Position numbers and translations under genes: made by a program
The notes under the pieces: model-generated
Told to the model about the DNA's origin: nothing
The model's database searches: none
Seen by the model: only the letters and a program-made list of their open reading frames with translations
DNA from: an uncultured virus (IMG/VR IMGVR_UViG_3300012933_000168)
Taxonomy: Duplodnaviria > Heunggongvirae > Uroviricota > Caudoviricetes
Direction: 5' to 3' (one strand)
DNA: 64,000 nt
IMG/VR virus record: IMGVR_UViG_3300012933_000168
Part shown: in pieces, positions 2,432 through 15,921 of the stretch
How positions within the stretch are numbered: the stretch's first letter is position 1
Layout of the letters: every line of letters starts with the position of its first letter

Positions 2432-3130
2432 ATGATTGAAATCCAGCCTAGCGCAGACAAACCTCTGCCCTTTGACCTGTCCGATGAGCAACCCAAGACT
2501 CATGCGGATAGCATCGCTATTGCTGCAAACACAGTCGATCTAGTTGAACGCCTCGGCGGGATGCTGGACTATGACGCAAAAGATTTCCAAGCAGCAGCTG
2601 CACTTGCCACCGGCAAAACAAAACCCAACGTACCAACCACCGTCCAGAAAACAGGGATGGCAAAAGTCTTGGCCGTTGCGGTAAAAGAATGCGACTTCCA
2701 AGTATTTGCGGATGTGCAGCAAGCGCGCAATTTCGTAACAAACAAACTCGTGGCCATGGCCGACTGCGGCGACCCGAAGCTGGAACTCAAGGCGCTAGAG
2801 CTCTTGGGCAAACACAGCGACATCGGGCTTTTCACCGAGCGCTCAGAAATTACTGTCCACCACACAACTTCCAAGGGATTGGAAGACTCTATTAAAGAAC
2901 GCGTCAAACGTCTGATGAACGCAGAAGTGACAGACGTGATTCCATTCGACGACCTCGATGCGCACCTAGGTGCCATGGGTGAGGGTGAGTTTACAAACGC
3001 TGAAGAACCGACATGTAAAGCGGACGAAGCTACTGATACGCAAGTAGTGGAAGAAGACAATCCAATTAGTCCAGCGCAACCTAGTTTGGACACTTTGGAC
3101 ACCTCCAAAGGCAAGAAAACCAAAAAATGA
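2432..3130 (+). CDS. Putative terminase small subunit
   Basis: Directly upstream of and overlapping terL; ALELLGKH..GLF motif typical of TerS. Confidence 0.7.
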   Translation: MIEIQPSADKPLPFDLSDEQPKTHADSIAIAANTVDLVERLGGMLDYDAKDFQAAAALATGKTKPNVPTTVQKTGMAKVLAVAVKECDFQVFADVQQARNFVTNKLVAMADCGDPKLELKALELLGKHSDIGLFTERSEITVHHTTSKGLEDSIKERVKRLMNAEVTDVIPFDDLDAHLGAMGEGEFTNAEEPTCKADEATDTQVVEEDNPISPAQPSLDTLDTSKGKKTKK

Positions 3131-4653
3131 GCATCGACGTATCCAAAATGTCCCTTGCGGACGTCCTGAAAGTCCTCCCGAGTCTCTCGGAATCGGACCA
3201 GCGGGTGTTGGAAGCTCAGCTTGCGAAGCTCGAAGAGCTCAAAAGCAGGGAGCTGATGCAGGAGAAGTTCATCAAGTTCGTGGAAACGGTCTGGCCGACG
3301 TTCATTGCCGGTCGACACCACAAGCGGATGGCTGAAGCGTTCGAGCGAGTGGCCAACGGGACCTGTAAACGGCTGATTATCAACATGCCGCCACGTCATA
3401 CGAAGTCAGAGTTCGCCTCATACCTGCTCCCAGCTTGGTTTTTGGGCAAATATCCGGGCAAAAAAGTCATTCAGACGTCCCATACTGCCGAATTGGCGGT
3501 GGGTTTTGGTCGAAAAGTGCGTAACTTGGTGGATACGGAGCAGTATCATGACATTTTTCCGGAATTGGGCCTTCAAAGCGACTCCAAAGCAGCGGGTCGA
3601 TGGAATACGTCTAAAGGTGGTGACTATTTTGCTATTGGTGTGGGTGGTGCGGTCACTGGAAAAGGTGCTGACCTCCTGATTATTGACGACCCGCACTCAG
3701 AACAAGAGGCTGCGATGGCAGCTACCAACCCAGAAGTCTACGATAAGGTCTACGAGTGGTACACGTCAGGTCCGCGTCAGCGTCTGCAACCCGGTGGGGC
3801 GATTGTGATCGTTATGACGCGCTGGGCTCAGCGTGATTTGACAGGACAGGTGCTCAAAAATGCTCAACTACGTGGCGAAACGGACTGGGAAGTTATCGAG
3901 TTTCCGGCGATCCTGCCATCTGGCAACCCGCTGTGGCCTGAGTTTTGGAGCATGGGCGAGCTTTCTGCACTCCGCGAAGAACTCCCGAATTCGAAGTGGC
4001 AAGCGCAGTATCAGCAGAACCCAGTGGGTAATGAGAGCGCGATTGTTAAACGTGATTGGTGGCAGTGGTGGGAAGAGGATGAGCCTCCTCAGTGCGAGTA
4101 CATCCTCCAGACGTGGGACACCGCGTTCGAGAAACACCAGCGGGCTGACTTTTCTGCGGGCACGACTTGGGGCATCTTTACCCACTATAAAGACAACTCG
4201 AAGAACATCATCCTACTCAACACATATAAGAAGCGTGTGGAGTGGGTGGACTTGAAGCGCGACGTGCTCCGTGAGTACAACGACTACGAGCCAGATGGTC
4301 TGTTGATCGAGAAGAAGGCGACCGGCGCGCCGCTCATCTATGAGTTGCGAGCCATGGGCATACCGGTCATGGAGTACACGCCGAGTAAAGGGCAAGACAA
4401 AATTGCCCGTTTGAACTCAGTCTCGGACATAATTGCGTCTGGGAAAGTTTGGGTACCCAAGACTCGTTGGGCTGAAGAGCTCGTGGACGAGATTGCGGCG
4501 TTTCCATCAGGCGAACATGATGACTTGGTTGACGCGACGACTCTAGCGTTGATGCGATTCCGCCAAGGTGGGTTCTTACGTCTGCCATCAGACGAGCCCG
4601 AAGATATTCAATGGTTCCGTAATCACCGCAAAGAGCGGTACTACACAGTGTAA
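3127..4653 (+). CDS. terL: Terminase large subunit
   Basis: Walker A-like NMPPRHTKSE, Walker B LLIIDDP, nuclease residues WDTA, IEKKA and HDDLVDA. Confidence 0.95.
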   Translation: MSIDVSKMSLADVLKVLPSLSESDQRVLEAQLAKLEELKSRELMQEKFIKFVETVWPTFIAGRHHKRMAEAFERVANGTCKRLIINMPPRHTKSEFASYLLPAWFLGKYPGKKVIQTSHTAELAVGFGRKVRNLVDTEQYHDIFPELGLQSDSKAAGRWNTSKGGDYFAIGVGGAVTGKGADLLIIDDPHSEQEAAMAATNPEVYDKVYEWYTSGPRQRLQPGGAIVIVMTRWAQRDLTGQVLKNAQLRGETDWEVIEFPAILPSGNPLWPEFWSMGELSALREELPNSKWQAQYQQNPVGNESAIVKRDWWQWWEEDEPPQCEYILQTWDTAFEKHQRADFSAGTTWGIFTHYKDNSKNIILLNTYKKRVEWVDLKRDVLREYNDYEPDGLLIEKKATGAPLIYELRAMGIPVMEYTPSKGQDKIARLNSVSDIIASGKVWVPKTRWAEELVDEIAAFPSGEHDDLVDATTLALMRFRQGGFLRLPSDEPEDIQWFRNHRKERYYTV

Positions 4654-4662
4654 GGACACGAC

Positions 4663-7119
4663 ATGGAAAAAGGTTTATACGCAGCGCCCATGGGCCTATC
4701 TGATTTGGCCGAGCAGCCCGAGTTGGAAATCGACATCATGCTGGAGCCCGGCGAAGAAGGTGAACACCTAGACGCGGAAACCGAAGGTACTGCCGACGAC
4801 TTTGACGCCAACCTTGCAGAGTTCATGGACGACAAGGACTTGCAGGCTCTGGGCGAAGAGCTCGTTGCTGATTTCGATAAGGACACTGGCGACCGACGCG
4901 ATTGGATTCAGACCTATGTTGATGGTTTGAAGCTGTTGGGTTTGAAGTACGAGGACCGGACAGAGCCATGGCAAGGTGCTTGCGGTGTGTTCCACCCCAT
5001 GCTGACCGAGTCAGTTGTGCGATTCCAGAGTGAGTCCATGATGGAGACGTTCCCAGCGATGGGACCTGTCAAAACTCAGATCGTTGGAGCTATTGACGTA
5101 CTCCGAGAAGAAGCAGCGGCCCGGGTTCGCGAAGACATGAACTACCAGCTCACCGAGGTGATGACTGAGTACCGCAGCGAGCACGAGAAGATGTTGTGGT
5201 CTCTGCCGTTGGCAGGTTCCGCGTTCAAGAAGGTGTACTACGACCCAGCTAAAGGTCGTCAAGTTGCTACGTTCATTCCCGCTGAAGACATCGTGGTGCC
5301 GTACGGCGCATCTAATATTGAGGATGCCGAGCGCGTTACCCATGTGATGCGTAAGACTGAGAACGAGTTGAAGAAACTGCAACATGCGGGTTTCTATATC
5401 AACGAAGACTTGGGCGACCCCATCGTGGAGTTGGACGACGTCGAGAAGCAGAAGGCCGAAGAGAATGGCATGTCTGCTATTCAGGATGACCGCTATCGCC
5501 TGTTGGAGATGCACGTCATGTTGGACCTCGAAGGGTTCGAGGATGAGGAAGATGGCGAGGAGACAGGTATCGCGTTGCCATACGTGGTGACTATTGAGAA
5601 GGGCACTCGTAAAATCTTGGCCATCCGTAGGAATTGGTATGAAGACGACCCGCTCAAACTCAAGCGCCAGCACTTTGTGCATTACCAATACATTCCGGGG
5701 TTCGGTTTTTACGGCTACGGACTCATTCACCTCATCGGGGGTTATGCGAAGAGCGCCACCATGCTCATTCGTCAGCTCGTCGATGCTGGTACCTTGTCCA
5801 ACCTCCCGGGGGGTCTTAAGTCTCGCGGATTGCGAATTAAAGGCGATGACACGCCCATCCAACCGGGTGAGTTCCGCGACGTAGACGTCCCATCGGGTTC
5901 GATCCGCGACAACATCTTGCCACTCCCATATAAGGAGCCATCGCAAGTTCTGTTCGCTTTGTTCAATCAGATCGTCCAAGAAGGCCGTGCGTTTGCATCG
6001 TCTGGCGATATGAGTGTGTCCGACATGAGCAGCCAAGCCCCAGTGGGTACGACTTTGGCTCTGTTGGAGCGTACGTTGAAGGTGATGTCCGCTGTGCAGG
6101 CCCGCTTGCACTATGCGATGAAGCAGGAGTTCAAGCTCCTCAAAGTCATCATCGCCGACTACACCCCAGAGGATTACGACTATGAGCCAGAAGAAGGCAA
6201 TCGCGCAATCAAAAAGTCTGATTACGACATGTGCGATGTCATCCCCGTGTCCGACCCCAACGCAGCTACCATGGCCCAAAAAGTCGTGCAGTACCAAGCA
6301 GTGTTGCAGTTGGCCCAGAGTGCACCGCAGTTGTATAACCTGCCCCTTCTTCACCGCCAGATGATCGAGGTGTTGGGTGTGAAGAACGCCAGCAAGCTCG
6401 TGCCAGTGGAAGATGACGCTACGCCGACCGACCCAGTGCAAGAGAACCAGAACTTGTTGACCGGCAAGCCCGTGAAAGCGTTCATGGAGCAGAACCACCA
6501 AGCTCACTTGGGTGTGCACATGGCAGCGATGCAAGACCCCAAGATCATGCAGATCGTTGGTCAGAACCCACAAGCTCAGGCTATTCAGGCAGCGATGATG
6601 GCTCACATCAACGAGCACGTCGCGTTCGAGTACCGCAAGCAGATCGAACAAGCTATGGGTATGGTCTTGCCGAGCGAAGAGAACCAGAAGCACCTGACTA
6701 CAGAGCAAGCCGACCAGATCGCGATGATGGCAGCTAAGGCTTCACAGCAACTTCTCCAGCAGAACAAGCAGGAAGCCGCAGCCCAGCAAGCTCAGCAACA
6801 AGCTCAGGACCCTGTGGTTCAAATGCAACAGCAAGAACTCCAGATCAAGATGCAAGAGTTGCAGCTCAAGGCTCAGAAGCAACAGCTCGACGCTGCTGCC
6901 AAGGCCGACCAGCTCGAAATCGAGAAGTCTCGCATCATGGCCCAGAAAGAGATCGCCGCTATGCAGGTTGGGGCCAACGCCGCAGCCGCTAAGGACAAGC
7001 TCAACAAGATGCAAGAGCTTGAAGGTACACGCATGGGGATTGACGCTGCTAAACATCGCGCTCAACTCCAGCAGCAACGAGCCTCACAAAACCGCGCGCC
7101 GCGCGACAAGAAGGAGTAA
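4663..7119 (+). CDS. Portal protein with Gln-rich C-terminal coiled coil (P22-like barrel)
   Basis: Follows terL; 818 aa; GFYGYGLIHLIG motif; Q/A-rich tail. Confidence 0.9.
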   Translation: MEKGLYAAPMGLSDLAEQPELEIDIMLEPGEEGEHLDAETEGTADDFDANLAEFMDDKDLQALGEELVADFDKDTGDRRDWIQTYVDGLKLLGLKYEDRTEPWQGACGVFHPMLTESVVRFQSESMMETFPAMGPVKTQIVGAIDVLREEAAARVREDMNYQLTEVMTEYRSEHEKMLWSLPLAGSAFKKVYYDPAKGRQVATFIPAEDIVVPYGASNIEDAERVTHVMRKTENELKKLQHAGFYINEDLGDPIVELDDVEKQKAEENGMSAIQDDRYRLLEMHVMLDLEGFEDEEDGEETGIALPYVVTIEKGTRKILAIRRNWYEDDPLKLKRQHFVHYQYIPGFGFYGYGLIHLIGGYAKSATMLIRQLVDAGTLSNLPGGLKSRGLRIKGDDTPIQPGEFRDVDVPSGSIRDNILPLPYKEPSQVLFALFNQIVQEGRAFASSGDMSVSDMSSQAPVGTTLALLERTLKVMSAVQARLHYAMKQEFKLLKVIIADYTPEDYDYEPEEGNRAIKKSDYDMCDVIPVSDPNAATMAQKVVQYQAVLQLAQSAPQLYNLPLLHRQMIEVLGVKNASKLVPVEDDATPTDPVQENQNLLTGKPVKAFMEQNHQAHLGVHMAAMQDPKIMQIVGQNPQAQAIQAAMMAHINEHVAFEYRKQIEQAMGMVLPSEENQKHLTTEQADQIAMMAAKASQQLLQQNKQEAAAQQAQQQAQDPVVQMQQQELQIKMQELQLKAQKQQLDAAAKADQLEIEKSRIMAQKEIAAMQVGANAAAAKDKLNKMQELEGTRMGIDAAKHRAQLQQQRASQNRAPRDKKE

Positions 7120-7122
7120 TAG

Positions 7123-7320
7123 TTGGACAACAGCCGAGTGCTTGCTTACATCGCCAAGGAGATCGACAAACTCCGTGGCGACCAAAATTCCTTCCTCTCT
7201 GGAGGAGGTGCTAAAACGTTTGACGAGTATCGTCACGTCTGTGGGGTCATCCGAGGTCTGACTCACGCAGAAACCATTGTCAAAGACCTTGTGCAACGAA
7301 TGGAGCAATCTGATGAGTGA
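7123..7320 (+). CDS. Small head-module protein
   Basis: AAGGAG RBS; YR..CG.IRGL motif; lies between portal and GroES-like gene. Confidence 0.75.
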   Translation: MDNSRVLAYIAKEIDKLRGDQNSFLSGGGAKTFDEYRHVCGVIRGLTHAETIVKDLVQRMEQSDE

Positions 7321-7726
7321 ACTCAATTTAGCGGGCGCAGTGGACCTATCTGGTCTGTTGAACAAGCCCGTCGAGGATAAGGCGAAGCAACTGCCTGATC
7401 CAAAGCGCTTTCATGTGCTGTGTGTAGTCCCCGAGGCTATGGAGCAGTACGCCGACAGCGACGTAGGCATCATCAAATCTAGCCAAGCTATGTATCACGA
7501 AGAAGTCCTGACTTCTGTGCTGTTCGTAGTGAAACTTGGCCCTGACGCGTACAAAGATGAGACTCGTTTCCCATCTGGCCCGTCATGCAAGGAAGGTGAC
7601 TTTGTCATCGTCCGACCCAATTCAGGCACCCGCTTGAAGATTCATGGCCGCGAATTTCGCATCATCAATGATGATTCGGTTGAAGCAGTTGTGGAAGACC
7701 CCCGTGGCATCTCACGTGCATCGTAA
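7313..7726 (+). CDS. groES: GroES/Cpn10-like co-chaperonin
   Basis: P..F.VL..., GII, VVKLGPDAY, CKEGDFVIV..NSGT, REFRIINDDSVEAVV match the Cpn10 pattern; ATG 7313 overlaps the upstream gene. Confidence 0.85.
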   Translation: MSELNLAGAVDLSGLLNKPVEDKAKQLPDPKRFHVLCVVPEAMEQYADSDVGIIKSSQAMYHEEVLTSVLFVVKLGPDAYKDETRFPSGPSCKEGDFVIVRPNSGTRLKIHGREFRIINDDSVEAVVEDPRGISRAS

Positions 7727-7736
7727 GGAGTAAGAA

Positions 7737-8729
7737 ATGGACGACTTTAAAGACGAGTTTGAGTTTCCTGATGAGAAGGAAGCTAAAAAAGCTGCTGCTG
7801 AAGACGCTAAGTTTGAAGTAGAAATCGAAGACGATACCCCGCCAGAAGACCGTGGCCGTAAAGCCGCGCCTCCTCCTGAAGACCCAACTGAAGATGAGCT
7901 AGCCTCATACGACGAAAAGGTTCAAGCGCGTATCAAGAAGTTCACCCGTGGTTACCACGATGAGCGCCGCGCCAAGGAAGAAGCCTTGCGCGAACGTCAG
8001 GCCGCTGAGTCTTACGCCAAGCAGGTCTACGAGGAAAACAAACGCCTCCAACAGCAGCTTGCTACCGGTAGCCAAGCCTATATCGAGCAGTCAAAGTCGT
8101 CTGCTGATATTGAGTTGAGCACTGCCAAGAAAGCGTACAAGGAAGCGATCGAAGCTGGTGACATTGACGCTCAGGCCGACGCCCAAGCAGACATCGCCCG
8201 CGCCATGTTGAAGATTGAAAAAGTCCAAAACATGAAGCCGATCGAGGTGGAAGAGAAGGACGACTTCAAACCTGCACAGACCGTTCAAGACGACCAGCCC
8301 AAGATGAGTCCACGTACTCAAAAATGGGTTAACGCCAATTCAGATTGGTGGGGCGTTGATGAAGAAATGACTATGACTGCTATGGGGCTTGACAAGAAGC
8401 TTGCAAAGGAGTATGGTTCGGACTATGTAGGGAGTGAAGAGTACTTCCGAACCATCGACAAAACGATGCGCAAACGATTTCCTGAGCATTTTGAAGATGC
8501 TCAGAGCCATGAGGATGACGAAACGCCTCCCCGAAAGACGTCAGAACCGGCTGAAGAGGAAACTCCCCGCCGTGCAACAAAATCCGCTACTGTTGTGGCT
8601 CCGGCCTCACGTAGCACCCCGCCTAATCGTATTCGTTTGAAGGCATCCGAAGCAGCGATCGCTCGCCGTCTTGGGGTTCCAATCGAACAATATGCTAAAC
8701 AGGTTGCTTTGCTGAAGAGAGGTGAATGA
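7737..8729 (+). CDS. Putative capsid scaffolding protein
   Basis: Acidic, coiled-coil; C-terminal IARRLGVPIEQYAK helix; position upstream of capsid genes. Confidence 0.75.
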   Translation: MDDFKDEFEFPDEKEAKKAAAEDAKFEVEIEDDTPPEDRGRKAAPPPEDPTEDELASYDEKVQARIKKFTRGYHDERRAKEEALRERQAAESYAKQVYEENKRLQQQLATGSQAYIEQSKSSADIELSTAKKAYKEAIEAGDIDAQADAQADIARAMLKIEKVQNMKPIEVEEKDDFKPAQTVQDDQPKMSPRTQKWVNANSDWWGVDEEMTMTAMGLDKKLAKEYGSDYVGSEEYFRTIDKTMRKRFPEHFEDAQSHEDDETPPRKTSEPAEEETPRRATKSATVVAPASRSTPPNRIRLKASEAAIARRLGVPIEQYAKQVALLKRGE

Positions 8730-9190
8730 TGGAAAACGGTACTAAACAAAACCGACTGGATCGTAAATTAGAGGACCGTACGGTCGCACAACGCGCAACT
8801 GCGTGGCGTCCACCCGAGACTCTGCCTAGCCCTGATGCCCGCTCCGGCTGGACTCATCGCTGGATTCGAATCAGTACTTTGGGTACAGCCGACCCGTCAA
8901 ATATTTCTTCGAAGCTTCGCGAAGGATACGAACCCTGCAAGTCAGAGGAATATCCTGAGCTCATGATGCACGCTACTACCGAAGGTCGCTTTAAAGGCAA
9001 CATTGAGGTGGGTGGTTTGTTGCTCTGCCGCATCCCATCGGAGTTCTTGGAACAACGATCAGCGTACTACGCTAATCAGAACAAGTCTCAAATGGAGTCC
9101 GTGGACAACAATTTCCTTCGAGAAAGTGATCCTCGTATGCCCTTGTTCGCGGACAAGAAGTCGAAGGTTACTTTCGGTTCTGGTTCTTAA
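8726..9190 (+). CDS. Head-module protein
   Basis: HRWIR..REGYEP..GGLLLCRIP motif; coupled to the scaffold gene. Confidence 0.75.
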   Translation: MMENGTKQNRLDRKLEDRTVAQRATAWRPPETLPSPDARSGWTHRWIRISTLGTADPSNISSKLREGYEPCKSEEYPELMMHATTEGRFKGNIEVGGLLLCRIPSEFLEQRSAYYANQNKSQMESVDNNFLRESDPRMPLFADKKSKVTFGSGS

Positions 9191-9205
9191 ATTTTGGAGT
9201 CCTAA

Positions 9206-9802
9206 ATGGCATACCCTACCGTTTCGGCACCTTATGGCTTAGAGCCCGTCAATTCGCTTGACGGCAAACCCTACGCTGGTGCAATCCGCCAAATTCCCGT
9301 GGCCGCAGGTTTCGCTACCGCTATTTTCAATGGCGACACAGTGCAAATCGGCAGCGATGGTTATTTGATTAAATCAACTGCAACAAACAGCGGCGCTATC
9401 GTCGGCGTTTGCTTGGGTGGTCAATACGTGAACTCGGCTGGTCAAACAGTTCAAGGTCAGTACATCCCCGCAGGTCAATCAACATCTACCAACTTGGCTT
9501 ATGCCTACGTTGTGGATGACCAACAAGCTTTGTTCAAAGTGGCCGTTGTTACCTCTGGTACAACTATGGGCACTGCGAGCCGCGCTGATGTCGGTTCTAA
9601 CGTTCCTTTGGTGTTGAACGCTGGTTCTACTACTACTGGCAATAGCGCTTTCGGCGTGACATTGACCGGTGCTGGTACTACTGCAACCATCCCATTGCGC
9701 GTTATCGACGTGGTCCCTGAGACCGCCACTTCAGCTGGTGTTTACACCGAGTTGTTGGTGAAGATCAACACCCACCAATACAACAACACCACTGGTGTTT
9801 AA
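9206..9802 (+). CDS. Putative capsid decoration/cement protein
   Basis: Beta-rich G/T/A composition, IFNGDTV motif, immediately before the major capsid gene. Confidence 0.7.
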   Translation: MAYPTVSAPYGLEPVNSLDGKPYAGAIRQIPVAAGFATAIFNGDTVQIGSDGYLIKSTATNSGAIVGVCLGGQYVNSAGQTVQGQYIPAGQSTSTNLAYAYVVDDQQALFKVAVVTSGTTMGTASRADVGSNVPLVLNAGSTTTGNSAFGVTLTGAGTTATIPLRVIDVVPETATSAGVYTELLVKINTHQYNNTTGV

Positions 9803-9812
9803 GGAGTAAACC

Positions 9813-10745
9813 ATGGCTATTTCACGCGCACAGTTACTTAAAGAACTGCTCCCCGGTCTGAACGCTTTGTTCGGTATGGAATATGCTCGCTACGGTGAGC
9901 AACACAAAGAGATTTACGAAACTGAAACTTCTGAGCGTAGCTTCGAAGAAGAAGTTAAGTTGTCTGGCTTCTCCGCTGCTCCAGTGAAGAACGAAGGCTC
10001 TGCAATCTCTTACGACAATGCACAAGAAGCATGGTCGACTCGCTACAACCACGAGACTATCGCTCTGGGCTTCTCCATCACTGAAGAAGCTGTGGAAGAT
10101 AACTTGTATGACAGCTTGTCTGCCCGCTACACCAAGTCTTTGGCTCGCGCCATGGCTTACACCAAGCAAGTTAAAGCCGCTTCCGTTTTGAACAACGGTT
10201 TCAACGGTGGCTACTTGGGCGGTGACGGTGTGTCATTGTTCGGTTACAACAGCTCTAGCTCGTTGGTTAACCACCCTCTGGTTTCTGGTGGCACCAACGC
10301 CAACACACCATCTACTCAAGCTGACTTGAACGAGACTTCTTTGGAAGCCGCCGTGATTCAAATCGCTGCTTGGACTGATGAACGTGGTCTGTTGATCGCT
10401 GCTAAGCCAAAGAAAATGGTTGTGCCTCCAGCGCTCCAGTTCGTTGCTACTCGTTTGTTGGAAACTAACCTCCGTGTTGGTACCGCTGACAACGACATCA
10501 ACGCGATCAAGAACAACGGTTCTGTGCCAGAAGGCTACACCGTTAACAACTTCTTGACCGACACAAACGCTTGGTTCTTGACAACTGACGTGCCTAACGG
10601 TTTGAAGCACTTCGTTCGTACACCGCTGCAAAACAGCATGGACGGCGATTTCGATACCGGTAACGTGCGTTACAAGGCCCGCGAGCGTTACAGCTTCGGC
10701 TGGTCTGATGCTCTGGGTATCTGGGGTAGCTCTGGCTCTAACTAA
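9813..10745 (+). CDS. Major capsid protein (HK97 fold)
   Basis: 310 aa, strongly biased codons, strong RBS, followed by a terminator; C-terminal DFDTGN.RYKARERYSFGWSD. Confidence 0.9.
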   Translation: MAISRAQLLKELLPGLNALFGMEYARYGEQHKEIYETETSERSFEEEVKLSGFSAAPVKNEGSAISYDNAQEAWSTRYNHETIALGFSITEEAVEDNLYDSLSARYTKSLARAMAYTKQVKAASVLNNGFNGGYLGGDGVSLFGYNSSSSLVNHPLVSGGTNANTPSTQADLNETSLEAAVIQIAAWTDERGLLIAAKPKKMVVPPALQFVATRLLETNLRVGTADNDINAIKNNGSVPEGYTVNNFLTDTNAWFLTTDVPNGLKHFVRTPLQNSMDGDFDTGNVRYKARERYSFGWSDALGIWGSSGSN

Positions 10746-10753
10746 GCCAACCT

Positions 10754-10783
10754 AAGAAAAGGACCTTCGGGTCCTTTTCTTTT
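10754..10783 (+). terminator. Rho-independent terminator after capsid gene
   Basis: AAGAAAAGGACC-TTCG-GGTCCTTTTCTT. Confidence 0.9.
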
Positions 10784-10810
10784 GTCCAAATTGGGTGTAT
10801 ATTCACCACA

Positions 10811-10885
10811 TCCCGGGGTCCCCGGTGTATCTGACAGTCCCGGCTGACTTTCATGCAGACAGATACGCCTAATTCGCATGAAGGA
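10811..10885 (+). ncRNA. Candidate pseudoknotted cis-regulatory RNA
   Basis: Three interlocked helices: 10813-18/10838-43, 10824-33/10860-69, 10850-56/10876-82; the last abuts the Shine-Dalgarno of the next gene. Confidence 0.6.
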
Positions 10886-10892
10886 ATAAATC

Positions 10893-11108
10893 ATGTCACG
10901 CACTACTTTCTCTGGCCCAGTCGCATCGACTAACGGCTTCATCGCTCCCACCTACACCGTCACTACTGCCAACGCAATCGCATCAGGTGACAAGACTACT
11001 GGCCAAGTCATCTACGTTTCTAACGGTTTGGCTGGCGCACCTTGCTTGGCTGTGTACAACGGTACAAACTGGATTTCTCCAGCTGGTACAGCGATCGCTG
11101 CATCCTAA
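10893..11108 (+). CDS. Small virion protein (head fibre-like)
   Basis: AAGGA RBS; MSRTTFSGPV start; GQVIYVSNG..YNGTNW fibre-like motif. Confidence 0.75.
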   Translation: MSRTTFSGPVASTNGFIAPTYTVTTANAIASGDKTTGQVIYVSNGLAGAPCLAVYNGTNWISPAGTAIAAS

Positions 11109-11117
11109 TTGGTCTTC

Positions 11118-11137
11118 GGGGCTTCGGCCCCTGTTTT
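11118..11137 (+). terminator. UUCG hairpin / possible terminator
   Basis: GGGGC-TTCG-GCCCC then TGTTTT; the same 14-mer occurs on the minus strand at 41027-41040. Confidence 0.6.
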
Positions 11138-11145
11138 AAAGGAGA

Positions 11146-11436
11146 TTGATTATGATGCAAACGGACGTTAAGGCAGCTCACCTCGACGCAAGCGGTGTTA
11201 TTTTTGCGGGTACAACTCGCGTAAAAGGTTACTCTGTTTCACCCGGCGGTACCGCTGGAGAGATAGAGTTTTACGACAACGCAAGCGCCGCTAGCGGGAC
11301 TATTCGCCTTATCTTGAACATTTCAACAAACCAAGCGCTGGATTCTTTGGCCATCCCCGGCGAAGGCATAAAGTTTAATAACGGCGTGTATGTTTCAATG
11401 CCAGCTAACGCTCACTTGACGGTGTACTATGGCTGA
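11146..11436 (+). CDS. Small beta-rich virion protein
   Basis: AAGGAG RBS; IPGEGIKF..GVYV motif. Confidence 0.75.
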   Translation: MIMMQTDVKAAHLDASGVIFAGTTRVKGYSVSPGGTAGEIEFYDNASAASGTIRLILNISTNQALDSLAIPGEGIKFNNGVYVSMPANAHLTVYYG

Positions 11437-12181
11437 TACAGAGAAGAGCATTAACCTAGCTGGGCGCAAATTGATGATTTGCATCCCGGCCTATGACGGT
11501 AAGTTGAACATTGATTCAGCTTTCGCCTTGTCCAACCTCGCCGTTCAGGTGGGTCACTTGGGGGTTAAGCTTTACCTCACGCACCTTTCGGGGTGCTCCC
11601 TTATTACGAAGGCTCGCAACGCTCTTGTTGCGGACTTTCTGGCGTCCGACGCAGACACGCTTCTGTTCGTCGATGCCGACGTTGTCATCAATGCCGACGC
11701 AGTGCTCCGCCTCATGGCGTTGAGCTTGGACAAAGACATCACTGCTGGCATCTATCCACGTCGCGGTATGGACCGCAAGTTCTTCTTGGACTACTACTTG
11801 GATGGCGACGGTGCTTTGGAGTTCGACGCCAACGGCATGATGCGTGTGAAGCGCATCGGTACAGGCTTCATGATGATTCAGCGCCACGTCCTTGAGACTC
11901 TGCGCGACAAGCACCCAGAGTGGAGCTACTACAACAACGTCAACGAACGTACTGACCACGCTATCTTTGATCTGGGCATCATGGAGAACGAGTACTACGG
12001 CGAAGACTACCTCTTCTGTGACCGCGCAGCCAAAGAAGGCTTCACGGTTTACCTCGACCCATCAATCAGCTTGCCTCACGTCGGCCAAGAGAAGTTCTCC
12101 CGTAGCTTCGAGGAAGACGTGTTGCAGCCGTTGCTGGCCCAGCACTGCACACCCAAACTGAAAGTCGTCAATGGCAACTAA
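11429..12181 (+). CDS. GT-A fold (GT2-like) glycosyltransferase
   Basis: ICIPAY, ITKARN, LLFVDAD (DxD), GTGFMMI, GEDYLFC, LPHVG. Confidence 0.85.
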   Translation: MADTEKSINLAGRKLMICIPAYDGKLNIDSAFALSNLAVQVGHLGVKLYLTHLSGCSLITKARNALVADFLASDADTLLFVDADVVINADAVLRLMALSLDKDITAGIYPRRGMDRKFFLDYYLDGDGALEFDANGMMRVKRIGTGFMMIQRHVLETLRDKHPEWSYYNNVNERTDHAIFDLGIMENEYYGEDYLFCDRAAKEGFTVYLDPSISLPHVGQEKFSRSFEEDVLQPLLAQHCTPKLKVVNGN

Positions 12182-12428
12182 GAAGACTCCATCGTTGGCA
12201 GTTGGTCGTGGCGAGAAACTCCCAGCGTCTAAGGGCGCGGGTCTCACAGCCAAGGGCCGTGCTAAATACAACGCTGCTACTGGCAGCAACCTCAAGGCAC
12301 CCCAGCCACAAGGCGGCAAGCGCAAAGACTCGTTCTGCGCCCGCATGTCTGGTATGCCCGGCCCAATGAAAGACGAGAAGGGCAAGCCCACTCGTAAGGC
12401 CGCGTCCTTAGCTCGCTGGAAGTGCTGA
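12171..12428 (+). CDS. Small basic protein (DUF6321-like)
   Basis: RKDSFCARMSG..SLARWKC motif. Confidence 0.7.
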   Translation: MATKKTPSLAVGRGEKLPASKGAGLTAKGRAKYNAATGSNLKAPQPQGGKRKDSFCARMSGMPGPMKDEKGKPTRKAASLARWKC

Positions 12429-12429
12429 A

Positions 12430-12678
12430 ATGGACAACATGGTTTGGAACCTAATTCTCTCAGCGGGCCTTGGTCTGTTGACTTGGATTTTGAAGGAAAA
12501 GTCCGATGAGCTCAGCCGCGTCACGATCCTCCTTAATCGCACTCGCGAAGAAATTGCCAAAGAGTACGTCACCAAAACCGAAGTCCATGCCGACATTAAC
12601 CGCGTCTTGGACCGCCTTGATAGGCTGGATGAAAAACTGGACCGCCTTATGGAGAGTAAACATGCCAGCAACAAGTGA
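12430..12678 (+). CDS. N-terminal TM plus coiled-coil protein
   Basis: Hydrophobic N-terminus; LDRLDRLDEKLDRL heptads. Confidence 0.75.
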   Translation: MDNMVWNLILSAGLGLLTWILKEKSDELSRVTILLNRTREEIAKEYVTKTEVHADINRVLDRLDRLDEKLDRLMESKHASNK

Positions 12679-13081
12679 AAAACAGAAGAAGTTCATGGAC
12701 GCCGCAGCGCACAACCCGTCGTTTGCAAAAGCAGCTGGCGTGCCCGCTAAAGTGGCCAAGGAATTTAGCGAAAAAAGCAAAGGACTGAAGTTTGGTAAGG
12801 GCTCAGACTCCCGCGCCGACCTCCAGAAAGTTAACAAGCCCGAAGCCCTCCACGGCAAATCGGCTCTCTTCAAAAAAGGTGGTGAGACCATGGACAAAAA
12901 AGACATCAAGCAGGACAAAGCGATCGTGAAGAAAGCTGTAACCATGCACGATAAACAGCTGCACGGCGGCAAGAAAACGAACTTGGCCAAGTTGGCTAAG
13001 GGTGGTGGTGTCGAGTCCAAGGGCAAGACCAAAGGTAAGAACATCGCCATGTGCGGTGGTGGCATGGCCAAGAAAAAGTAA
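12662..13081 (+). CDS. Lys-rich small protein with xxxGG motifs
   Basis: GGAG RBS; MPATSEKQKKFM start; FKKGG, LAKGG, MCGGG. Confidence 0.75.
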   Translation: MPATSEKQKKFMDAAAHNPSFAKAAGVPAKVAKEFSEKSKGLKFGKGSDSRADLQKVNKPEALHGKSALFKKGGETMDKKDIKQDKAIVKKAVTMHDKQLHGGKKTNLAKLAKGGGVESKGKTKGKNIAMCGGGMAKKK

Positions 13082-13091
13082 GGAGCTCATC

Positions 13092-13631
13092 ATGGCACGT
13101 AAAAAAGATTTAGCTGGCTTAGCCACATTGGCCGGTCTGGCCTACATGGCGTCTCGCGACAAGGGTGGGGAATCAGCGGCTCCAGAAGCTGCGACTGATG
13201 GTGCGGTAGCGTCACCCGTCCGTTCGGGTGAAACAGAAGAGACTAAGCTTGACAGCATGGCCGACGTGCCACGTTCTCGTCCCGCAGCCCCTAAAGCTTC
13301 TGCACCAAAACCCATGGGTGGTTCTGGCCGTGGTGGTCGTGGTGGCGCTTCAGCTGAAGAGTTGGCTACGTACGCCGCTAGCAAGAAGCCCGCGTACGAA
13401 ACACCTTATGACCGTTCACGTCGTGAAGACCGTGAAGCTGGCCGTGACATCGGTTCTGTGATCGAAGGCTTGAAGAACAAGCTCACCAGCGAAGACACTC
13501 GTAAGCCTTTGCCTTTGAAGAGCACCAAGTCTGAGACTGGAAACTCGTTTATGGGCGCAGGGATGAAAAAAGGCGGCTCCGTCAAAGGCTGGGGCATGGC
13601 TCGCGGCGCTCGTAAAGCAAAAACCTACTAA
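13092..13631 (+). CDS. Low-complexity protein with C-terminal MKKGG motif
   Basis: AGGAG RBS before ATG 13092. Confidence 0.75.
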   Translation: MARKKDLAGLATLAGLAYMASRDKGGESAAPEAATDGAVASPVRSGETEETKLDSMADVPRSRPAAPKASAPKPMGGSGRGGRGGASAEELATYAASKKPAYETPYDRSRREDREAGRDIGSVIEGLKNKLTSEDTRKPLPLKSTKSETGNSFMGAGMKKGGSVKGWGMARGARKAKTY

Positions 13632-13640
13632 GGAAAAATC

Positions 13641-13844
13641 ATGGCTAAAGACAAAGTTTATACCGCTGACATGGGCCAACCCCCACAAGACGTTGACGGT
13701 AAGTCAGCTGGCAAGACCGACAAGAAAGACCAACCCGAGCAGGCTGGTAGCGGCATCATCGTCAAGAAAGCCAAAGGCGGTTCCGTGTCTTCACGCGCAG
13801 ATGGCTGCTGTATCAAAGGCAAAACACGCGGCAAGGTGCTGTAA
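13641..13844 (+). CDS. Small Lys-rich protein (KAKGG..RADG)
   Basis: AAGGA RBS; coupled to the next gene. Confidence 0.7.
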   Translation: MAKDKVYTADMGQPPQDVDGKSAGKTDKKDQPEQAGSGIIVKKAKGGSVSSRADGCCIKGKTRGKVL

Positions 13845-14080
13845 TGTTGGCGAGCCGTGGTATGGGGGCCGTCAAAGCCTCCAAGATGCCTAAACCCAAA
13901 GTCATTAAGAAGCGTGACGGAGACTACCCAGTTGACGTCTACGCTGATGGTGGCCAAGTCGGGTTGTACGCTAACATCAACGCTAAGCGTAAACGTGGAG
14001 AAAAGATGCGTAAGCCCGGTGCCAAAGGCGCGCCGACAGCCCAAGCATTTATCGACTCCGCAAAAACAGCAAAGAAGTAA
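13844..14080 (+). CDS. Small basic protein (YADGG..GLYANI)
   Basis: TAATG overlap; GLYANINAKR..KPGAKGAPT motif. Confidence 0.7.
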   Translation: MLASRGMGAVKASKMPKPKVIKKRDGDYPVDVYADGGQVGLYANINAKRKRGEKMRKPGAKGAPTAQAFIDSAKTAKK

Positions 14081-14083
14081 ACC

Positions 14084-15013
14084 ATGGCAGTCACATCCGG
14101 TCAAACCTCCTTTAACCTCGAACTAACTGAGTTGGTCGAGGAAGCGTTCGAGCGCGCCGGACGTGAACTGCGTTCGGGTTATGACCTGCGTACAGCCCGT
14201 CGTAGCCTCAACATCATGTTCGCCGACTGGGCGAACCGTGGCATCAACATGTGGACGATTGAGCAAGGTCAGATCGACTTGGTTCAAGGTCAGAGCACCT
14301 ACGCACTGCCGAACGACACAGTGGATTTGCTTGAGCACGTCATCCGCACACAAGCGGGCCAGACTTCTAACCAAGCTGACCTGACCATCACACGTATCAG
14401 CGTCTCAACCTATGCGACCCTCCCAAACAAGCTTCAGCAGGCTCGTCCAATTCAGGTATGGGTCCAAAGACTGGATGGGCAGACTGCGGCGTCAATCACG
14501 ACTCTTGCGAGTGGCATATCGGCTACTGACACAACGATTGCGTTGACATCTGCGCTGGGTATGCCAGCGGCGGGTTTCATCAAGATCGACAACGAGACCA
14601 TCAACTACACCGCTGTCAGTGGCAATGACCTCACAGGCTGTTTCCGTGGGCAGAACGGTACTACCGCCGCTACTCATTCAACCGCCGCCGCTGTGTCCGT
14701 GCAGAACCTTCCAGCTGTGACCGTGTGGCCGACTCCAGACGGTGCTCAGACCTATCAATTCGTTTACTGGCGTCTCCGCCGCACCCAAGATGCGGGCGGT
14801 GGTGTGAACGTCATGGACGTACCTTTCCGATTCATCCCTTGTATGGCCGCTGGTTTGGCTTTCTACATCGCTGGCAAGATTCCAGAAGGCGCTGAGCGCA
14901 TCATGATGTTGAAGCAACAGTACGACGAGGCTTGGGAGCTGGCTGCTTATGAAGATCATGAGAAGGCAGCGATTCGATTTGTACCGCGCCAGCAGTACAT
15001 TGGGGGCACCTAA
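14084..15013 (+). CDS. Putative head-tail adaptor (tail tubular protein A-like)
   Basis: RTARRSLN..WANRG N-terminus and helical C-terminus typical of podovirus adaptors; internal ~65-aa inserted module. Confidence 0.7.
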   Translation: MAVTSGQTSFNLELTELVEEAFERAGRELRSGYDLRTARRSLNIMFADWANRGINMWTIEQGQIDLVQGQSTYALPNDTVDLLEHVIRTQAGQTSNQADLTITRISVSTYATLPNKLQQARPIQVWVQRLDGQTAASITTLASGISATDTTIALTSALGMPAAGFIKIDNETINYTAVSGNDLTGCFRGQNGTTAATHSTAAAVSVQNLPAVTVWPTPDGAQTYQFVYWRLRRTQDAGGGVNVMDVPFRFIPCMAAGLAFYIAGKIPEGAERIMMLKQQYDEAWELAAYEDHEKAAIRFVPRQQYIGGT

Positions 15014-15441
15014 TGGGTAACCGGTTCGCCAGCGGCAAATGGGCGATTGCTCAGTGCGACCGTTGCGATGGTCGGTTCAAACTGAAGGTCCTCAAGCGCG
15101 AGATTATCAAGACCAAGAACTATGAGCTCTTGGTGTGCCCAGAGTGCTGGGACCCTGACCAACCACAACTTCAACTGGGTATGTATCCGGTTGACGACCC
15201 ACAAGGTTTGCGCAACCCACGTCCCGATCGTAGCTACGTTACATCAGGCACAACAGGCTTGCAAATTCTGAACGGGAACAGCACGAATATCAATGCTCAA
15301 GGTTTCCAAGGCGAAGGCAGTCGCGACATACAATGGGGCTGGAACCCTGTTGGTGGCGCAGCTTTAAATGATGCAGGTTTAACGCCAAACTACTTGGCTT
15401 TAGCTGTGGAAATTGGTACAGTCACCATATCAACGACGTAA
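15013..15441 (+). CDS. Zinc-ribbon virion-module protein
   Basis: CDRC..CPEC; TAATG coupling. Confidence 0.75.
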   Translation: MGNRFASGKWAIAQCDRCDGRFKLKVLKREIIKTKNYELLVCPECWDPDQPQLQLGMYPVDDPQGLRNPRPDRSYVTSGTTGLQILNGNSTNINAQGFQGEGSRDIQWGWNPVGGAALNDAGLTPNYLALAVEIGTVTISTT

Positions 15442-15451
15442 GGAGTCGAAC

Positions 15452-15649
15452 ATGTCTTTTAAAAAATCAGCCGACGGCGTTACCAAGTCAGGTAAGACCG
15501 AAGGTAAAAATCTCGGTGATAGCGGCCCAACAGCAGCAGCTCAAAAGGGCAAAGGCGGCAAGGGCGGCAAAAACGGTGGCAAGACTAACGAAGACATGCT
15601 GAGCATGGGTCGTGGTATGGCTAAAGTTGCAAACCAAAAGCGAGGCTAA
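15452..15649 (+). CDS. Small Lys/Gly-rich protein
   Basis: AAGGAG RBS before ATG 15452. Confidence 0.7.
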   Translation: MSFKKSADGVTKSGKTEGKNLGDSGPTAAAQKGKGGKGGKNGGKTNEDMLSMGRGMAKVANQKRG

Positions 15650-15651
15650 TC

Positions 15652-15921
15652 ATGGCTAAATTCAGCAAAAAAATGATGGGCAAAGAAGTTGGCAGTGCCA
15701 GCGTCTACGCTAAGCCACACACTATGGACGGCAAGCCTCTCAAGGCCACAAAGAAAACCGACCCAAACACTTTGTCTGCTAAGCAGATCAGCCCACGTAC
15801 CGTAGCAATGCGCGTGAGTGGTGGTGACCCTGCTGCCGACGACGTCAAAACTTCGGGCATCAAAATCCGTGGTACCGGTGCAGCAACCAAGGGCCTGATG
15901 GCTCGCGGACCAATGGCCTAA
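15652..15921 (+). CDS. Small basic protein (IRGTGAATKG)
   Basis: GAGG RBS; in-operon position. Confidence 0.7.
   Translation: MAKFSKKMMGKEVGSASVYAKPHTMDGKPLKATKKTDPNTLSAKQISPRTVAMRVSGGDPAADDVKTSGIKIRGTGAATKGLMARGPMA

Follow-up and report, generated by a model that had tools for sequence, protein, structure and literature searches.

A conserved junction-bearing leader between the capsid and capsid-accessory genes of HTVC023P-type phages that looks like a larger relative of Mu-gpT-DE

The window, a stretch of 64,000 nt from an uncultured virus of the Caudoviricetes (IMG/VR IMGVR_UViG_3300012933_000168), is a podophage-like genome arm with terminase, portal, GroES and capsid genes. Its capsid protein shares 64.6% identity with the capsid of pelagiphage HTVC023P, and between the capsid gene and the next gene lies a spacer that contains a compact RNA fold. 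The features of this region are:

9813..10745, + strand: major capsid protein gene of the HTVC023P type (PF10124, Mu-like gpT, 28.3 bits against a cut-off of 20.1)
10757..10784, + strand: intrinsic-terminator-like hairpin (UUCG loop) with U tract at the end of the capsid message, by sequence inspection
10798..10803, + strand: probable -10 box, with conserved spacing to the first helix
10813..10818, + strand: helix a, 5' strand; its partner is the loop of d, 10838-10843
10821..10825, + strand: alternative partner of strand a (competing 5' hairpin), using two letters of b
10824..10833, + strand: helix b, 5' strand; partner 10860-10869
10834..10847, + strand: junction core, with A10834, helix d (10835-37/10844-46) around the 6-nt loop a', and A10847
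10848..10859, + strand: probable lone pair e (C10848-G10858) around the loop with strand c (10850-56), and the third junction A, A10859
10860..10869, + strand: helix b, 3' strand
10876..10882, + strand: helix c, 3' strand, ending on the first Shine-Dalgarno letters
10881..10895, + strand: Shine-Dalgarno-like site and start codon, from the sequence
10893..11108, + strand: 71-aa capsid-accessory gene, with the family N-terminal motif and a PF26696 (phage-tail-like trimerisation) region
11118..11137, + strand: small terminator-like hairpin 3' of the accessory gene, from the terminator scan

The spacer measures 147 nt from the capsid stop (10745) to the 71-aa gene (10893), and the next longest within 2432-15921 is 43 nt, so the first-pass annotation was right to call it the only long spacer in a tightly packed arm. 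The capsid terminator, which it described as strong, is plain in the sequence as a hairpin and U tract, but is absent from the output of the terminator scan; similar hairpins follow the capsid stop in relatives too. The hairpin after the accessory gene occurs in 32 of the 99 relatives with enough flank and is therefore not general. As for the proposed -10 box, TATATT, the best TAnnnT lies 7-9 nt 5' of helix a in 63 of 95 sequences with the window's architecture (hereafter the long form) and 7-9 nt 5' of the first helix in 72 of 107 with a smaller one (the short form, described below). The promoter call depends on this conserved spacing, because the sigma-70 scan lacks the box and the -35 element matches at only 3/6 positions. 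An early reading as an extended -10 (TGn) was ruled out by the sequence itself. We infer a transcription start near 10810, 2-3 nt 5' of helix a, and because the element fills the stretch from the -10 box to the Shine-Dalgarno-like site, it is probably the entire 5' UTR of the accessory gene. Four RNA runs, which consisted of contigs, gave little cover of the leader.

Several other genes of the window deserve mention. The stretch 2160-2283 comprises a single tRNA gene, tRNA-Asn(GTT), with a promoter-like site upstream (TTGACC-18-TATAGT), whose TGTATA flavour is common to the leader's -10 box. A GroES co-chaperonin gene (7313-7726) precedes the head genes, as is common to HTVC023P-type phages. 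Within the head module, a glycosyltransferase-like gene (11429-12181) may serve to glycosylate the virion, and 12171-12428 encodes a small basic DUF6321 protein, a candidate nucleic-acid binder, whose domain occurs in several PHROG families.

The three helices a, b and c that had been drawn for the spacer are all present, each of their six strands pairing as claimed, and helices a and c can be extended to 7 bp and 9 bp (10848-56/10876-84), respectively. Their non-nested order, a-b-a'-c-b'-c' with at least 6, 10 and 7 bp, never arose in 3000 dinucleotide shuffles and was found in 3 of 2102 + strand tiles, the window element being among the 3; nested-only folding shows nothing unusual (z -0.51). 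Three features were absent from the first reading: helix d (3 bp), the probable lone pair e and the competing 5' hairpin. Adding these, we model the element as a three-way junction, b-A-d-A-e-A, in which the 6-nt loop pairs with the 5' end and the 8-nt loop with the strand before the Shine-Dalgarno site. The earlier description, double-pseudoknot-like, thus captured the crossed helices but understated the fold, a three-way junction whose two small loops each pair with a strand outside it. Kissing loops provide a precedent for a short stem that carries a 6-nt loop with every letter paired; helices a and d could also be alternatives rather than coexist. Strand c', said to run into AAGGA, overlaps its first two letters but covers no more of it.

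We scored pairing with own and with swapped partners in 122 distinct long forms, from which two loci with a variant core (L015, L016) and short or unclear forms had been left out. Strand a pairs over at least 5 bp with its own partner in 121 of the 122 (31% when swapped), strand b in all 122 (38%) and strand c, again over at least 5 bp, in 120 (45%). The loop paired with the 5' end has 6 nt in 109 sequences and the loop with strand c has 8 nt in 108. Five core letters are invariant, partly owing to the anchoring of the parser, and about seven are near-invariant overall; the three A linkers of the junction are invariant apart from sporadic A-to-G changes at the first of them (L316, L320). The middle pair of helix d is Watson-Crick in every one of the 122, with four pair types, and in 64/64 rows of a plain MAFFT alignment. 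It is also Watson-Crick in 29 of 31 further matches, the other 2 being mis-anchored, in a set chosen by a model that contains d. Pair e is C-G in 117 sequences and U-A in 5, both sides having changed in the same five, and the change occurs again in 023Pt_psg01; it is this joint change of the flanking C and G to U and A that suggests a lone pair.

A home-made tree-aware covariation test was applied to 95 sequences, from which 3 mis-anchored rows and 24 lacking a unique 6/8 regex anchor had been removed beforehand. The 21 top-scoring column pairs all fall within a, b, c or d, with the scores of a and c' inflated because their registers were picked by pairing. On the tree, the middle pair of d underwent 7 double and 0 single changes; pair e underwent 3 double and 0 single, which is not significant in the all-pairs test. 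In the plain MAFFT alignment, which was not fitted to the structure, 78.6% of cells are paired, as against 59.9% when shuffled and 30-41% when slid, with a paired in 70% of cells and c' in 63.5%. The alignment and covariance model used below (the long-form model) were built from 64 sequences hand-chosen from 124 references (60 left out). Covariation in homologous spacers, on which the first-pass annotation had staked its fold, is hence seen for a, b and c, plus d, and on these comparisons the structure is well supported as a real, conserved fold.

Among the 95 sequences, c' abuts the Shine-Dalgarno-like site in 47, shares 1-3 nt with it in 33 and leaves a gap of 1-5 nt before it in 15, always ending 7-15 nt from the AUG. 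The 9-bp extension of c into the Shine-Dalgarno site is not conserved, its first pair being G.A in 49 and G.G in 34 of 98. The competing 5' hairpin (at least 4 Watson-Crick pairs) can form in 41 of 95 relatives, mostly of one clade, against 16% with swapped partners.

Taking as relatives the best 80 capsid relatives in IMG/VR, the long-form model finds one copy in 71 of the 80 loci, training rows included, and a single copy in the window. Among its nine misses, L015 is a variant recognised by eye, six contigs run out no more than about 720 nt beyond the capsid stop, and L013 and L030 have neither accessory gene nor leader within 1.5 kb. The model also matches HTVC023P, HTVC027P, DSL-LC04 and 023Pt_psg01, as well as 30 of the 59 loci (L302-L360) in which the capsid group occurs in a collection of species-representative genomes. 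These 59 come from uncultured bins (MAG or similar), mostly on short contigs, and being assigned to unrelated phyla, one archaeon included, are likely to be mis-binned phage contigs. A scan for the core letters that was blind to capsids returned at least 120 long-form matches, at least 114 of them distinct. Among the 114 distinct matches listed, 113 have at least 7/10 b pairs and all have a and c of at least 5 bp; 101 stand before the family N-terminus by regular expression and 13 by eye, the latter including one at a contig end and one that is apparently frameshifted.

In genomes where endonuclease-like or other ORFs have entered behind the capsid gene, the element is displaced by 700-1100 nt together with the accessory gene, which it still immediately precedes (e.g., L014, L029, L031, L050-52, L059, L062, L068, L077, L079). 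By its arrangement in these genomes, the element goes with the downstream gene, not with the capsid gene. Three loci have the accessory gene and no recognisable leader (L273, L291, L312).

Other observations concern the same site. Insertions of endonuclease-like ORFs (HNH/GIY-YIG-looking, by eye) and of other small ORFs cluster in the interval that separates the capsid terminator from the leader (L012-L014, L016, L022, L025-L027, L032, L039, L040, L046, L047, L051, L052, L068, L079). In L031 and L077 a 23-aa ORF, which we take to resemble a PqqA precursor peptide, is inserted about 130-170 nt past the capsid stop. The stretches before the accessory gene in L273 (2445-2544) and L291 (2490-2591) hold degenerate or different leaders, that of L273 keeping a core-like hairpin with a UUCG loop. 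In the GC-rich relative Pag-Yong1 (L086), the post-capsid spacer (3404-3507) has a different fold, with an 8-nt strand complementary to the Shine-Dalgarno region of the 'minor capsid protein' gene; it matches neither the long-form model nor RF03012 and is possibly a third leader type. The phage records OQ594354, OL906435 and PP438419 bear differing names and hosts and are identical in length (65,014) and capsid score.

An Rfam search of the window returned the tRNA alone, with weak terminator-type matches at E<=10, and the same search at the element in 20 related loci gave no match. The claim that this is not a known family therefore holds as far as Rfam matches go, but position, downstream gene family and core are common to the family Mu-gpT-DE (RF03012; 53 positions, Rfam type Gene; sRNA). 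Like the long form, including the window element, Mu-gpT-DE comes after a terminator that ends a capsid gene of the Mu-like gpT type, precedes the same accessory family and aims a strand c at the initiation region. The two have in common a core of helix b, A, a C-N-G helix d, AC, a 7-10-nt loop, GA and b'. The window contains the core letters of RF03012, GACAG...CUGAC...GA, together with helices b and d; it has neither the 4-bp outer helix into the Shine-Dalgarno site nor the free d hairpin. Membership of RF03012 was set at a covariance-model score of at least 49 bits. The positive control, Roseobacter phages CRP-901 and CRP-902, reaches 72.3 bits at the same site and locus L328 reaches 74.5 bits there. 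Identity of the window element with RF03012 was rejected, since no match was found at the element in the window, in the 20 related loci or in the five records searched.

The differences are architectural. Helix b has about 10 bp in the long form, 33 nt from the AUG in the window, against 4 in Mu-gpT-DE. The d arm of the long form carries a 6-nt loop paired to the 5' strand, whereas in Mu-gpT-DE it is a free hairpin of variable length. Strand c pairs beside the Shine-Dalgarno site in the long form and with the start codon in Mu-gpT-DE. Helix a is present in the long form; the short form lacks it yet has the core. The Rfam consensus structure of Mu-gpT-DE has no helix c and no pair e, which the authors' own alignment may include (11 pairs against 9), judging from the accessible part of the source. 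Because the long-form model does not match short forms, the link between them rests on core letters, topology, position and gene.

A pattern scan for short forms gave at least 120 matches; among the 120 listed, 118 stand before the same gene family and 2 at a contig edge. In the pairing set (n=107, the 2 contig-edge rows excluded), strand c matches the gene's fifth letter as G-C in 70 and C-G in 36, with one mismatch; this switch follows Ala versus Gly at codon 2, in sequences that are related and not independent events. The middle pair of d varies in short forms too (L261, L275, L342, L343). Scanning for short forms with U at e gave 10 matches, 5 of them genuine (3 identical), with U.G twice, U.U once and no U-A, so that pair e is unsupported there.

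Long and short forms are mixed on a tree of 223 capsids, non-uniformly sampled, with at least 9 changes between them, 6 forced by strong branches; recombination can explain this mixing. Intermediates also exist: L243, L245 and L344 combine helix a and a long b with a start-codon-type c, and L316 combines a long b and a Shine-Dalgarno-side c with no a. Both forms have cultured carriers, HTVC023P, HTVC027P and DSL-LC04 for the long and CRP-901/902 for the short, and the junction is kept across hosts from Pelagibacter to Roseobacter. On these sequence comparisons, the long form looks like a larger relative of Mu-gpT-DE, and the two look like two builds of one leader.

The 174 complete downstream proteins (62-295 aa), less 16 residues, fall into 20 clusters, in 10 of which both leader forms are found. 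Only the N-terminal ~12 residues are conserved across the family, with free synonymous variation; this arm has few basic residues, and in the predicted cement model it is of low confidence. RNA-binding arms, in contrast, are typically basic. Pfam gave no match for 9 of 10 accessory proteins tested, Foldseek none for the window's 71-aa protein, and sequence searches of the PDB with the accessory proteins of the window and of L054, and with the capsid, returned nothing useful. The 151-aa protein that L054 has at the same site is predicted to be a jelly roll closest to phage cement proteins. Its best fold matches are those of Pam1 (7eel_H, cyanophage), KHP40 (7dou_4, Helicobacter phage) and GP4 (8h89_J, Ralstonia phage), with Foldseek E 2.8e-4, Z 11.9 and 12.2, rmsd 4.7 and 3.1, and 125 and 113 aligned; the KHP30 cement protein is also among the closest. 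The copy in DSL-LC04 is annotated as 'cement protein'. The window's protein and the cement-like L054 protein have the N-terminal motif alone in common, and we infer from these data that the family consists of capsid-surface (cement or spike) proteins with a common anchoring arm.

Among the functions that the first-pass annotation had offered for the element, the structured, cis-acting leader is the one supported, in that the element spans the -10 box to the ribosome-binding site and stays with its gene; the remaining readings are weighed separately below. Because the junction is common to both architectures, each of which directs the same strand to the initiation region in its own way, we favor a leader that acts on translation in cis over a free RNA, and give it a probability of about 0.8. 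The leader probably sets how much accessory protein is made. Its invariant core suggests recognition, and a protein seems a better candidate than a metabolite since the target is structural and single-copy. Whether the leader is a protein-operated switch is an even call; that a phage protein operates it is a tentative proposal, and a host protein would be an unlikely operator.

Such a switch could work as follows. The junction would hold strand c, and helix c, within the footprint of the 30S subunit, would lower initiation. A conserved protein would recognise the invariant face of the junction and shift the equilibrium of helix c. It is tempting to speculate that this protein is a head component of which free molecules exist only while head assembly falls behind or has reached saturation, such as the conserved N-terminal arm of the accessory protein or a capsid or scaffold protein, and that accessory synthesis might thereby be matched to the available capsids. 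Repression may be weak because c mostly abuts rather than covers the Shine-Dalgarno site. Several findings count against an operator: there is no conserved alternative 'on' fold, the 5' hairpin being limited to the 41/95 relatives noted above; the arm is non-basic and the remainder of the accessory protein is not conserved; and the three loci named above have the gene with no recognisable leader. An autogenous operator would call for a conserved nucleic-acid-binding product, and here the products form 20 clusters with cement-like or PF26696 domains.

The main rival is a static leader, whose compact fold would stay as it is and, with no ligand, would tune the initiation rate and/or protect the 5' end from decay, its junction letters serving tertiary packing. 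The inferred 5' end is buried in helix a, no alternative fold is universal, the near-invariant letters number only about seven, and the downstream proteins are too diverse for a common large RNA-binding surface. However, a plain hairpin would suffice for this purpose, whereas the same junction recurs in two architectures and in hosts from Pelagibacter to Roseobacter, and the short form keeps the core even where helix a is missing; we consider a static leader the less probable explanation, though one to be taken seriously. A riboswitch for a small molecule or ion, with the three-A junction as aptamer and helix c as expression platform, has in its favor the conserved multistem junction with pseudoknots and near-invariant core, the position as the whole 5' UTR and the helix at the Shine-Dalgarno site or start codon, features that fit the criteria for sophisticated RNAs given in the available part of PMC5737381. 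Riboswitches control metabolite- or ion-linked genes, but the sole gene that would be regulated here encodes a virion structural protein; there is one copy per genome, conserved unpaired letters are few, and no Rfam riboswitch matches. We therefore judge a riboswitch to be distinctly unlikely. Slightly less so, and still improbable, is a broader version in which the three-A junction would be an aptamer of a new fold, sensing a capsid-assembly intermediate, a small molecule or an ion, and would be coupled to either of two exchangeable expression platforms, one on the Shine-Dalgarno side and one on the start-codon side.

Two further readings of the fold we regard as very improbable. Small self-cleaving ribozymes are of this size and have junction-plus-pseudoknot topologies and, like the 6-nt loop here, loops on very short helices, so that the element might process the 5' end of the message. 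Yet the inferred start 2-3 nt before helix a leaves nothing upstream to remove, and no Rfam ribozyme matches: HDV-like, pistol, twister and hatchet models gave no hit at E<=10 in the window or E<=1 in relatives, with the reservation that minimal variants can escape such models. The hammerhead core consists of CUGANGA and GAAA; it is absent, the window reading CUGACUU, with the second letter being A in 59, U in 37, C in 23 and G in 3 of the 122 long forms. A free-standing small RNA or packaged structural RNA (pRNA-like), with a/a' or c/c' pairing between copies, is equally hard to credit. It would account for an own -10 box after a terminator, for loop-to-flank pairings that could be intermolecular, and for the classing of the sister motif Mu-gpT-DE by Rfam as an sRNA gene. 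RNAs of the phi29 pRNA type are independent transcripts with their own 3' end, however, and no terminator separates this element from the start codon, although processing could supply an end. The distance from c' to the AUG is fixed at 7-15 nt, strand c of the short form covaries with codons 1-2, and the element stays with the downstream gene rather than the capsid gene. The packaged RNA of the first-pass annotation is accordingly unlikely because the fold runs into the ribosome-binding site in the long form and into the start codon in the short.

Control of translation in cis, as favored here, would turn an Rfam orphan, a 'downstream element/sRNA', into a testable hypothesis, in which a 5' leader targets the site where translation of a capsid-accessory gene begins. 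Ready-made mutants and hosts are available in the form of natural covariation, the intermediates and the cultured carriers, and an RNA of ~70 nt with four helices around a three-A junction is an attractive structural target. If the aptamer reading were true, one of the most abundant groups of aquatic phages would tune its surface cement or spike per capsid; a small-molecule or catalytic version would, if true, add a class of riboswitch or ribozyme, found in lytic phages, to those known. The literature searched documents few cases in which a folded leader controls virion stoichiometry after transcription.

The Mu-gpT-DE motif reportedly comes from a survey with criteria for sophisticated RNAs. 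In our literature search, 'Mu-gpT-DE' was named in one work only (with its preprint), and no description of the long-form leader was found. That work, PMC7657543 and preprint, names Mu-gpT-DE/RF03012 in one main-text passage and in supplement table rows, as far as its accessible parts go, and gpT is not mentioned in the accessible main text of PMC5737381. According to the available part of PMC10690425, a computational screen of IMG/VR nominated leaders that precede GP20, GP32 and capsid genes in phages, and recovered RF03012 six times. These candidates resemble the long form in being structured leaders of phage genes; none named in that part matches it, and the long form may be one of the unnamed ones. 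The closest functional parallel considered is the operator of T4 gene 32, where a leader pseudoknot is thought to nucleate the binding of a protein that blocks the ribosome-binding site (PMC3014915, as far as available). Both have a pseudoknot in a phage gene's own leader. That of T4, as described there, is a simple two-stem pseudoknot 67 nt upstream with an unstructured A+U-rich tract, whereas here a junction reaches the Shine-Dalgarno site; its ligand is a nucleic-acid-binding protein, whereas the gene product here would be a capsid-surface protein. By sequence, the long form appears new relative to Rfam, in which its sister Mu-gpT-DE is already catalogued.
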